Assembly (NCBI GenBank): GCA_944351765.1
Contig: CALVPR010000001.1
Location: forward strand, 1,591-65,590
DNA: 64,000 bases
Reading direction: 5' to 3'
Source of the DNA: an uncultured Bacilli bacterium
GTDB taxonomy: Bacteria; Bacillota_I; Bacilli_A; RF39; UBA660
A program made the position numbers and the translations under genes. Every line of letters begins with the position of its first letter. Within the stretch, counting starts at the first letter, position 1. A model generated the notes under the pieces. That model searched no databases and was not told the origin of the DNA. It saw only the letters and a program-made list of their open reading frames with translations. Shown one piece after another: positions 41,184 to 41,381 of the stretch.

Positions 41184-41324
41184 CTATTTATTTATATAAG
41201 CAAACGAGCTATTACTTACCTCTAATCCTTCCATTTTAGCATCGTTTACTATTACTAAAGTTGCAATAGCAAGAACAATATAAAATATTATTACTCCCTT
41301 ATTTTGTTTTAAAACTTCAACCAT
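41184..41324 (-). CDS. Small single-TM protein (46 aa), candidate SOS-induced cell-division inhibitor (SosA/YneA-like)
   Basis: Not in ORF track; translated by hand as MVEVLKQNKGVIIFYIVLAIATLVIVNDAKMEGLEVSNSSFAYINK; divergent from lexA; promoter with LexA box in spacer. Confidence 0.4.
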   Translation of the reverse strand: MVEVLKQNKGVIIFYIVLAIATLVIVNDAKMEGLEVSNSSFAYINK

Positions 41325-41352
41325 TTCTTCTCACTACCTTTCTTACAATATT

Positions 41353-41381
41353 ATATTATCACGAATAGTTGTTCGTGTCAA
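41353..41381 (-). promoter_or_regulatory. Sigma-A type promoter TTGACA-17-TAATAT for the small ORF, with Cheo box inside the spacer
   Basis: Minus-strand reading TTGACACGAACAACTATTCGTGATAATAT; exact consensus -35, 17-nt spacer. Confidence 0.55.
41362..41375. promoter_or_regulatory. LexA operator (Cheo box) CGAATAGTTGTTCG
   Basis: 13/14 match to Firmicutes CGAAC-N4-GTTCG consensus; between divergent small ORF and lexA. Confidence 0.6.

Follow-up and report, generated by a model that had tools for sequence, protein, structure and literature searches.

The window analyzed here, which is the whole stretch of 64,000 nucleotides (nt) from contig CALVPR010000001.1 of an uncultured Bacilli bacterium, carries a 46-codon open reading frame (ORF) on its minus strand, divergent from lexA, and we regard this ORF as a candidate for an SOS-induced inhibitor of cell division. 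According to the ORF list of this analysis and its translation, the gene occupies positions 41184..41324 with the stop codon TAG at 41186-41184, and no longer in-frame start is possible. The deduced peptide, MVEVLKQNKGVIIFYIVLAIATLVIVNDAKMEGLEVSNSSFAYINK (46 amino acids; aa), is exactly the one given in the original prediction, which had been made from the letters of the window alone. The G+C content of the window is approximately 23%, and the matching metagenome-assembled genomes come from gut samples. The original prediction also held that automated annotation would miss so small a gene. This was wrong in general, as the ORF is called in dozens of assemblies: in public assemblies, 59 blocks contain a gene call for precisely this 46-aa protein, every time between lexA and a radical SAM gene, and some relatives' versions have been deposited as 'hypothetical protein.'

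The peptide is predicted to comprise the cytoplasmic N-terminus MVEVLKQNK (9 aa), a single transmembrane (TM) helix at approximately residues 10-27, and an extracellular tail of ~19 aa that bears the motif KMEGLE and, close to the C-terminus, a hydrophobic patch. The Kyte-Doolittle average over 17 residues is 2.99 at residues 10-26. AlphaFold2 returned a single helix that was confident only at residues 11-30 (predicted local distance difference test score of 85-92) and carried no fold information. A word-indexed search with the single peptide recovered only same-species variants with 83-98% identity, in which the substitutions were almost all outside the TM helix, the latter being invariant except for V24I. 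Thus, we used the synteny with lexA to reach the real relatives (see below for the details).

The divergent neighbor at 41470..42099 on the plus strand encodes a protein of 209 aa with both Pfam domains of LexA, namely PF01726 (LexA_DNA_bind) and PF00717 (Peptidase_S24). Its translation contains the helix-turn-helix, the Ala-Gly cleavage site (VTAG/S), and the GDSM serine and TLK lysine motifs. Judging from these domains and motifs, the gene is a genuine and intact lexA, in agreement with the original prediction. The start codons of the small ORF (41324) and lexA (41470) are separated by 145 nt.

Expression signals between the two genes

The small gene and lexA are each preceded by a promoter of their own, and the two are arranged back to back. 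A promoter scan detected a sigma-A-type promoter of the small gene at 41353..41381 on the minus strand, composed of the -35 element TTGACA (41381-41376), a 17-nt spacer, and the TG-extended -10 element TAATAT (41358-41353). This promoter agrees with the consensus at 10 of the 12 positions and points away from lexA, and the transcription start is predicted near 41346. The top two promoter-like sites of the region are this one and the lexA promoter on the plus strand (41424..41452; TTGACA-17-TATTAT), which is also TG-extended and agrees with the consensus at 11 of the 12 positions.

Directly after the -35 element, the spacer of the small-gene promoter is filled with a LexA operator (Cheo box), CGAACAACTATTCG, at 41362..41375 (41375-41362 when read on the minus strand), which shows one mismatch against the Gram-positive LexA box CGAAC-N4-GTTCG. 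The original prediction had placed both the TTGACA-17-TAATAT promoter and the operator in its spacer at these same positions. The operators of lexA itself were found at 41391..41426 by a box scan and a weight matrix; these are TAAACAAATGTTCT (41391-41404) and TAAACATTTGTTTG (41413-41426), of which the latter overlaps the -35 element of lexA. In the relatives, the boxes equivalent to the lexA operators lie at approximately -50 from the lexA start.

A scan for GAAC-N4-GTTC with one mismatch allowed showed no enrichment across the window (6 found vs. 7.1 expected), and two of the six matches sit in the intergenic region between the small gene and lexA, 30 nt apart from each other. We replaced this simple scan with a LexA-box weight matrix built from the equivalent (orthologous) sites in 39 other species. 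The score of CGAACAACTATTCG, 18.9, was the maximum in the window and was followed by that of the lexA operator at 41413-41426 (11.9), while the maxima in 20 mononucleotide shuffles of the window ranged from 11.5 to 18.1. From the operator in its promoter, the small gene is predicted to be under the control of LexA.

The Shine-Dalgarno region, AGAAAGGTAGTGAG, was read directly from the sequence at 41330..41343 on the minus strand, 6 nt before the ATG. On the same strand, an intrinsic terminator at 41138..41184, which the standard terminator scan missed, starts at the stop codon of the small gene and consists of a hairpin (41184-41145) and the following U7 (41144-41138), with a fold z of -3.2 relative to shuffles. 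Next to the AT-rich hairpin lie A7 and, on its opposite side, a T-rich stretch (41138-41197). As the convergent radical SAM gene ends within the stem (stop codon at 41171-41173), the hairpin appears to be a bidirectional terminator common to the two genes. Furthermore, since the small gene has its own promoter and a terminator at its stop codon, a monocistronic mRNA of ~200 nt is predicted.

Distribution of the gene among relatives

We surveyed a lexA-anchored sample of 77 loci from species-representative genomes, in which the identity to the LexA of the window ranged from 44 to 99%, and 73 of them were usable. An ORF was counted if it started with ATG on the minus strand 60-230 nt upstream of lexA, encoded 38-65 aa, and contained an N-proximal hydrophobic stretch. 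Such an ORF was found in 42 of the 73 loci, while the background estimated from 579 kb of related DNA was 0.006 per equivalent zone of 170 nt. A hidden Markov model (HMM) of the family added five members, three of which were adjacent to lexA and had narrowly failed the thresholds and two of which were displaced. Altogether, a small single-TM ORF (41-61 aa) was found in 47 of the 63 loci whose LexA shares at least 50% identity; by the same ORF search and the family HMM, it was found in none of the 10 loci with LexA less than 50% identical. The arrangement is divergent and lexA-adjacent in 45 relatives, and a gene is inserted between the two in two more. The original prediction had proposed a search for a syntenic small ORF in relatives, and it is indeed beside lexA that the ORF was found, with the radical SAM gene downstream in eight species.

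The ratio of nonsynonymous to synonymous substitution rates (dN/dS) between the family members ranged from 0.08 to 0.6 and was below 1 in all of the 17 pairwise comparisons. These comparisons indicate that purifying selection acts on the small ORF and that it is a real gene. Alternatively, the frame might be open by chance, with the operator and promoter serving only the autoregulation of lexA or a non-coding divergent transcript. A tiny AT-rich ORF that has no family annotation and was absent from the ORF list supplied for the original prediction invites such an interpretation. Nevertheless, the length, position, TM helix, and Shine-Dalgarno sequence are kept in the 47 of 63 species against the background of 0.006 per locus, the dN/dS values are those given above, a terminator directly follows the stop codon, and the promoter is directed away from lexA, which has its own promoter and operators. 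In addition, the operator moves together with the ORF in one relative and is lost together with it in another (see below). By conservation, selection, its own promoter and operator, and the terminator, a chance origin of the ORF is effectively excluded.

The architecture of the family is constant, with a mean length of 46 aa divided into an N-terminus of 7 aa, a TM helix of ~19 aa, and a polar/acidic tail of ~19 aa. Of the 40 members, 39 have a net positive charge in the N-terminus and 29 a net charge of zero or below in the tail, and a small hydrophobic patch lies 3-6 residues from the C-terminus. Directly after the TM helix, a motif of the form basic-hydrophobic-acidic-x-Leu-acidic, represented by KMEGLE in the window, was recognized. 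From the charge bias and hydrophobicity, we predict a single TM segment with the N-terminus inside and the C-terminus outside (N-in/C-out) for the family. Together with the TM helix modeled by AlphaFold2, this is consistent with the short cytoplasmic N-terminus, one TM helix, and outer tail of ~20 aa that the original prediction had described.

The regulatory region is shared widely. When aligned on the -35 element, almost all of the 42 relatives show TTGACA at -52 to -58 relative to the ATG; CGAAC-N4-GTTCG follows at once, and then (T)G, a TAnnAT -10 element, and an AGGAG-type ribosome binding site. The architecture of -35, CGAAC-N4-GTTCG, and -10, with a spacing of 17 between the two promoter elements, is common to approximately 39 species. 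The Shine-Dalgarno sequence at the equivalent place is AAGGAGG, AGGGAGG, or GGGTGAT.

Two natural rearrangements bear on the ownership of the operator at 41362-41375. At one locus (L024; LexA 88% identical), an inserted gene of 705 aa separates lexA from the small ORF, and the latter keeps its own TTGACA-box-TATAAT promoter at a distance of 2.3 kb from lexA. At another (L025; LexA 78% identical), the small ORF and its promoter/operator are both gone (L025:3700-4010), lexA retains its own operator, AAACAAATGTTTGACATTTGTTT, and the stop codon of the radical SAM gene lies ~40 nt from the -35 element of lexA. As the operator stays beside the ORF in L024 and disappears along with it in L025, we assign this operator to the small gene. 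According to the original prediction, loss or disruption of the ORF with retention of the operator in close relatives would argue against a gene; no such case was seen, given that the ORF is present in 47 of the 63 loci and that L025 lost both. The 705-aa ORF inserted in L024, the closest different species, is on the minus strand (L024:1723-3841) and gave no Pfam match.

Another insertion was observed in L028 (2868-3828, minus strand) and at the equivalent place in L029, the LexA proteins of which are 75-76% identical to that of the window. A gene with a Fic/DOC domain (PF02661) is inserted there divergent from lexA and has a promoter of its own, TTGACA...ACGAACAAAAATATGC...TAATAT. To judge from this promoter, the gene may be another one controlled by the SOS response, and it recalls the LexA-bound 'death-on-curing' gene of the gut SOS meta-regulon (PMC3998124). 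In L028, the gene for the small peptide persists farther off with its own promoter.

On the side opposite to lexA, no single neighbor prevails. Downstream of the small ORF lies the gene for transketolase in 10 species, polA (DNA polymerase I) in 10, and the convergent radical SAM gene in eight, and a gene for UPF0154 (YneF family) is near the small ORF in several relatives. The sole constant partner of the small ORF is lexA. In Bacillus subtilis, the order of the genes in this region is lexA-yneA-yneB-ynzC-tkt-yneE-yneF. Since the transketolase and UPF0154 neighbors recall the lexA-yneA region of B. subtilis, we regard the small ORF as occupying the yneA slot. The lineage possesses genes for the synthesis of peptidoglycan: a MurD-like ligase was annotated by Pfam in L001, and in L067 the small gene is followed by an ORF that resembles MurC by a reading of its N-terminal sequence.

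The occupants of the slot differ among more distant loci. A true YneA of 93 aa, with a TM helix and a LysM domain, was identified in L091 (~3530-3815, minus strand; 54.9 bits and E = 6e-15 against the YneA model NF010723), and the lexA-divergent slot of L084 (Nosocomiicoccus, Staphylococcaceae) holds a SosA-like ORF of 71 aa. In L089 (~3540-3815, minus strand), a lexA-divergent ORF of ~92 aa with a C-terminal TM helix is located behind five LexA-like boxes. The LexA proteins of L089 and L091 are 47-48% identical to that of the window, and these two loci illustrate the repeated turnover of genes in the lexA-divergent slot.

Probable function of the peptide family

The ORF of the window had no match in Pfam, NCBIfam, or PHROGs, and the 40 family members searched against the same three libraries yielded only scattered, single-member noise matches. 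The YneA model NF010723, for which the L091 ORF served as a positive control, gave no match to the ORF of the window at E <= 10; one of the 40 members touched this model with E = 0.044, in the TM helix only. A profile search of a collection of 5.8 billion sequences retrieved 48 clusters of 42-50 aa, named at most 'hypothetical protein,' and an exhaustive HMMER search over 1.84 billion protein representatives retrieved 37 matches, nearly all of which were 39-59 aa. From the few clusters and the lack of any family-library match, the family is narrow and uncatalogued. The small-peptide family was left undescribed in the work on the LexA regulon of gut metagenomes (PMC3998124). The top match of the family profile in the representative library, P0049 (491 aa), consists of five tandem repeats of ~95 aa, each holding a segment like the TM helix and tail of the family (…MKIICFMIIILSCISFSLNRSIFNQKQKKDIKIELEQKNQ…); this protein could reflect reading through a tandem DNA repeat, or it could be a repeat protein with no relation to the family.

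The SOS division inhibitors of Gram-positive bacteria are adjacent to lexA and possess a single TM helix and an extracellular C-terminus, and they share little homology with one another (PMC6851548). The class comprises YneA, SosA, ChiZ, and DivS. We consider it probable, at roughly 60%, that the small gene encodes an SOS-induced inhibitor of division with the N-in/C-out topology, which would act on the septal peptidoglycan synthase by analogy to these proteins. The closest architectural analogue is SosA of Staphylococcus aureus (77 aa), which likewise has an N-proximal single TM helix and an extracellular C-terminal tail and lacks LysM. The SosA homologues among staphylococci share 25-60% identity. 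SosA is most conserved just after the TM helix and is kept within a narrow clade (PMC6851548). YneA of B. subtilis and Listeria resembles the peptide in the lexA-divergent slot, the LexA box in the promoter, the N-in, TM, C-out order, and, in the relatives, the nearby tkt and UPF0154/YneF genes; on the other hand, YneA has LysM, and the peptide is less than half its length. The TM helix of YneA binds TM7 of FtsW and thereby blocks septal peptidoglycan synthesis, and AlphaFold 3 suggests FtsW as the target of SosA, ChiZ, and SidA as well (PMC13396833). By analogy to YneA, FtsW is likely the same target for the peptide. SidA of Caulobacter crescentus (29 aa) is similarly a minimal hydrophobic peptide induced by the SOS response through LexA, although it is alphaproteobacterial, unrelated in sequence, and essentially free of an extracellular tail. 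The gene for SidA is not known to lie next to lexA. As this protein blocks a late step of division with 29 aa, and its binding to FtsW has been reported or predicted (PMC6851548, PMC13396833), a peptide of such a size can suffice for a division block.

Several observations weigh against a division inhibitor. The conservation within the family is weak, with no invariant column and a mean column identity of 27%, and the KMEGLE-type juxtamembrane motif is present in just 14 of the 42 members. About a quarter of the relatives, including the close relative L025, are without the gene at the lexA locus. The operator in the window has ATTC in place of GTTC, and a more degenerate box is present in L026, L027, and L083, the nearest homologues of 46 aa. 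By hhalign, no homology was detected to the L091 YneA (probability of 0.8%), and the probability was 0.2% for the 71-aa SosA-like ORF of L084, which was used as a stand-in for S. aureus SosA. The peptide of the window is 46 aa with a tail of ~19 aa, as compared with 77 aa and ~47 aa in SosA; SosA, itself without LysM, depends on its membrane-proximal extracellular segment and needs most of the tail (PMC6851548). LysM, found in 2026 to be essential for the inhibitory activity of YneA (PMC13396833), is absent in all of the 40 members by the Pfam search, and the ~19-aa tail cannot hold this domain of 43 aa. By sequence, the family is an analogue of YneA and SosA rather than their demonstrable homologue.

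The short and poorly conserved tail, the analogy by which division was assigned, and the dispensability of the gene in ~25% of the relatives would also suit a LexA-regulated membrane peptide with another role, such as a modulator of a membrane protease, a transporter, or an envelope enzyme, for which the adjacency to lexA would be a regulatory convenience. Moreover, the downstream neighbors vary so widely that they give no operon hint of function. However, the characterized genes of Gram-positives with this lexA-divergent position and single-TM architecture are all division inhibitors (PMC6851548), and a true YneA is found in the same slot of a more distant relative. We thus consider another role unlikely.

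A membrane toxin induced by the SOS response, of the type of TisB or DinQ, is the other alternative; such a peptide would depolarize the membrane and lead to dormancy or persistence with no specificity for the divisome. TisB of Escherichia coli is a LexA-regulated membrane toxin of 29 aa. The peptide of the window resembles it in being very small, hydrophobic, and under a LexA box, the family evolves fast, and neither LysM nor any other recognizable module for binding the divisome or peptidoglycan is present. Nevertheless, TisB differs in its antitoxin small RNA (sRNA) IstR-1, its action by depolarization rather than on the divisome, and its synteny. An antisense promoter was detected at 7 of 40 loci, a frequency equal to the background (0.22 expected per locus). 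At the locus, no Rfam match was obtained, which leaves room for a novel sRNA, and Pfam gave no match to a toxin family. Furthermore, the fixed lexA-adjacent yneA slot and the conserved polar tail of ~19 aa are typical of proteins like YneA and SosA rather than of type I toxins. Taking both sides together, we regard a toxin of this type as quite unlikely.

We return to the division inhibitor as the preferred interpretation. The comparison among relatives shows, at the level of sequence, a real gene with the membrane architecture, the conserved LexA-box promoter, and the yneA/sosA-type position. These parts of the original prediction of an SOS division inhibitor stood, whereas the inhibition of division itself is an argument by analogy. 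Likewise, we infer the induction by damage, the division target, the FtsW partner, and the proteolytic recovery from the characterized lexA-divergent genes. In an undamaged cell, LexA bound to CGAACAACTATTCG between the -35 and -10 elements would block RNA polymerase. Upon DNA damage, the self-cleavage of LexA stimulated by RecA would free the strong promoter of the small gene. The peptide would then enter the membrane, and its TM helix would dock on FtsW-PBP2B, as proposed for YneA, SosA, and SidA. The short juxtamembrane/extracellular tail would block septal wall synthesis and delay division until repair is complete, and the block would be ended by the re-repression by LexA and the proteolysis of the exposed tail.

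As a more tentative idea, which we regard as conceivable but doubtful, the family might be a minimal, LysM-less descendant of YneA or its replacement in situ, arresting division by the TM helix and the ~19-residue tail. If so, it would be the smallest checkpoint peptide in Firmicutes, FtsW would be blockable without peptidoglycan binding, in contrast to the indispensability of LysM in YneA, and the peptide would offer a natural minimal scaffold for inhibitors of SEDS (shape, elongation, division, and sporulation) polymerases.

As a division inhibitor, the small gene would extend the rule that a small membrane peptide divergent from lexA is an SOS division checkpoint to a large uncultured lineage of gut Bacilli with very low G+C content. 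The protein family, absent from Pfam, NCBIfam, and PHROGs, is new, while the functional kind is known; no concept is overturned, and a gene of such a kind at lexA could have been predicted by a specialist. The value lies in the minimal size of the peptide and in the exceptionally clean and conserved promoter with the operator in its spacer. The combination of a very well conserved regulatory module and a fast-evolving 46-aa effector makes a compact natural test case for the inhibition of septal synthesis by a TM peptide, with ~50 divergent natural variants for asking what makes such a peptide a division inhibitor. The family members gathered here also provide a curated seed alignment with which such small lexA-adjacent genes can be annotated in metagenome-assembled genomes.

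Other features of the window

Apart from the lexA region, the weight matrix gave weak LexA-box-like sites with scores of 11-12, CGAATATTATTTCG at 60836-60849 and CGAATATTTATTCC at 18964-18977. The former is in a gap of 500 nt upstream of a TatD-family DNase gene (59939-60655). Both are probably due to chance. The sites at 18964, 60836, and 56496 were rejected as evidence for a regulon, with scores within the range of the shuffles and no typical SOS gene beside them. No Rfam family reached its gathering score anywhere in the 64-kb window. The window (1-64000) has a strongly negative GC skew, and nearly all of its long ORFs lie on the minus strand, the few plus-strand genes including lexA and the radical SAM gene. 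A cluster for cell-envelope polysaccharide is located at ~18-36 kb and includes genes for a fusion of an O-antigen-ligase-like protein with a family 4 glycosyltransferase (GT4), a flippase, a deacetylase, and a UDP-N-acetylglucosamine (UDP-GlcNAc) 2-epimerase.

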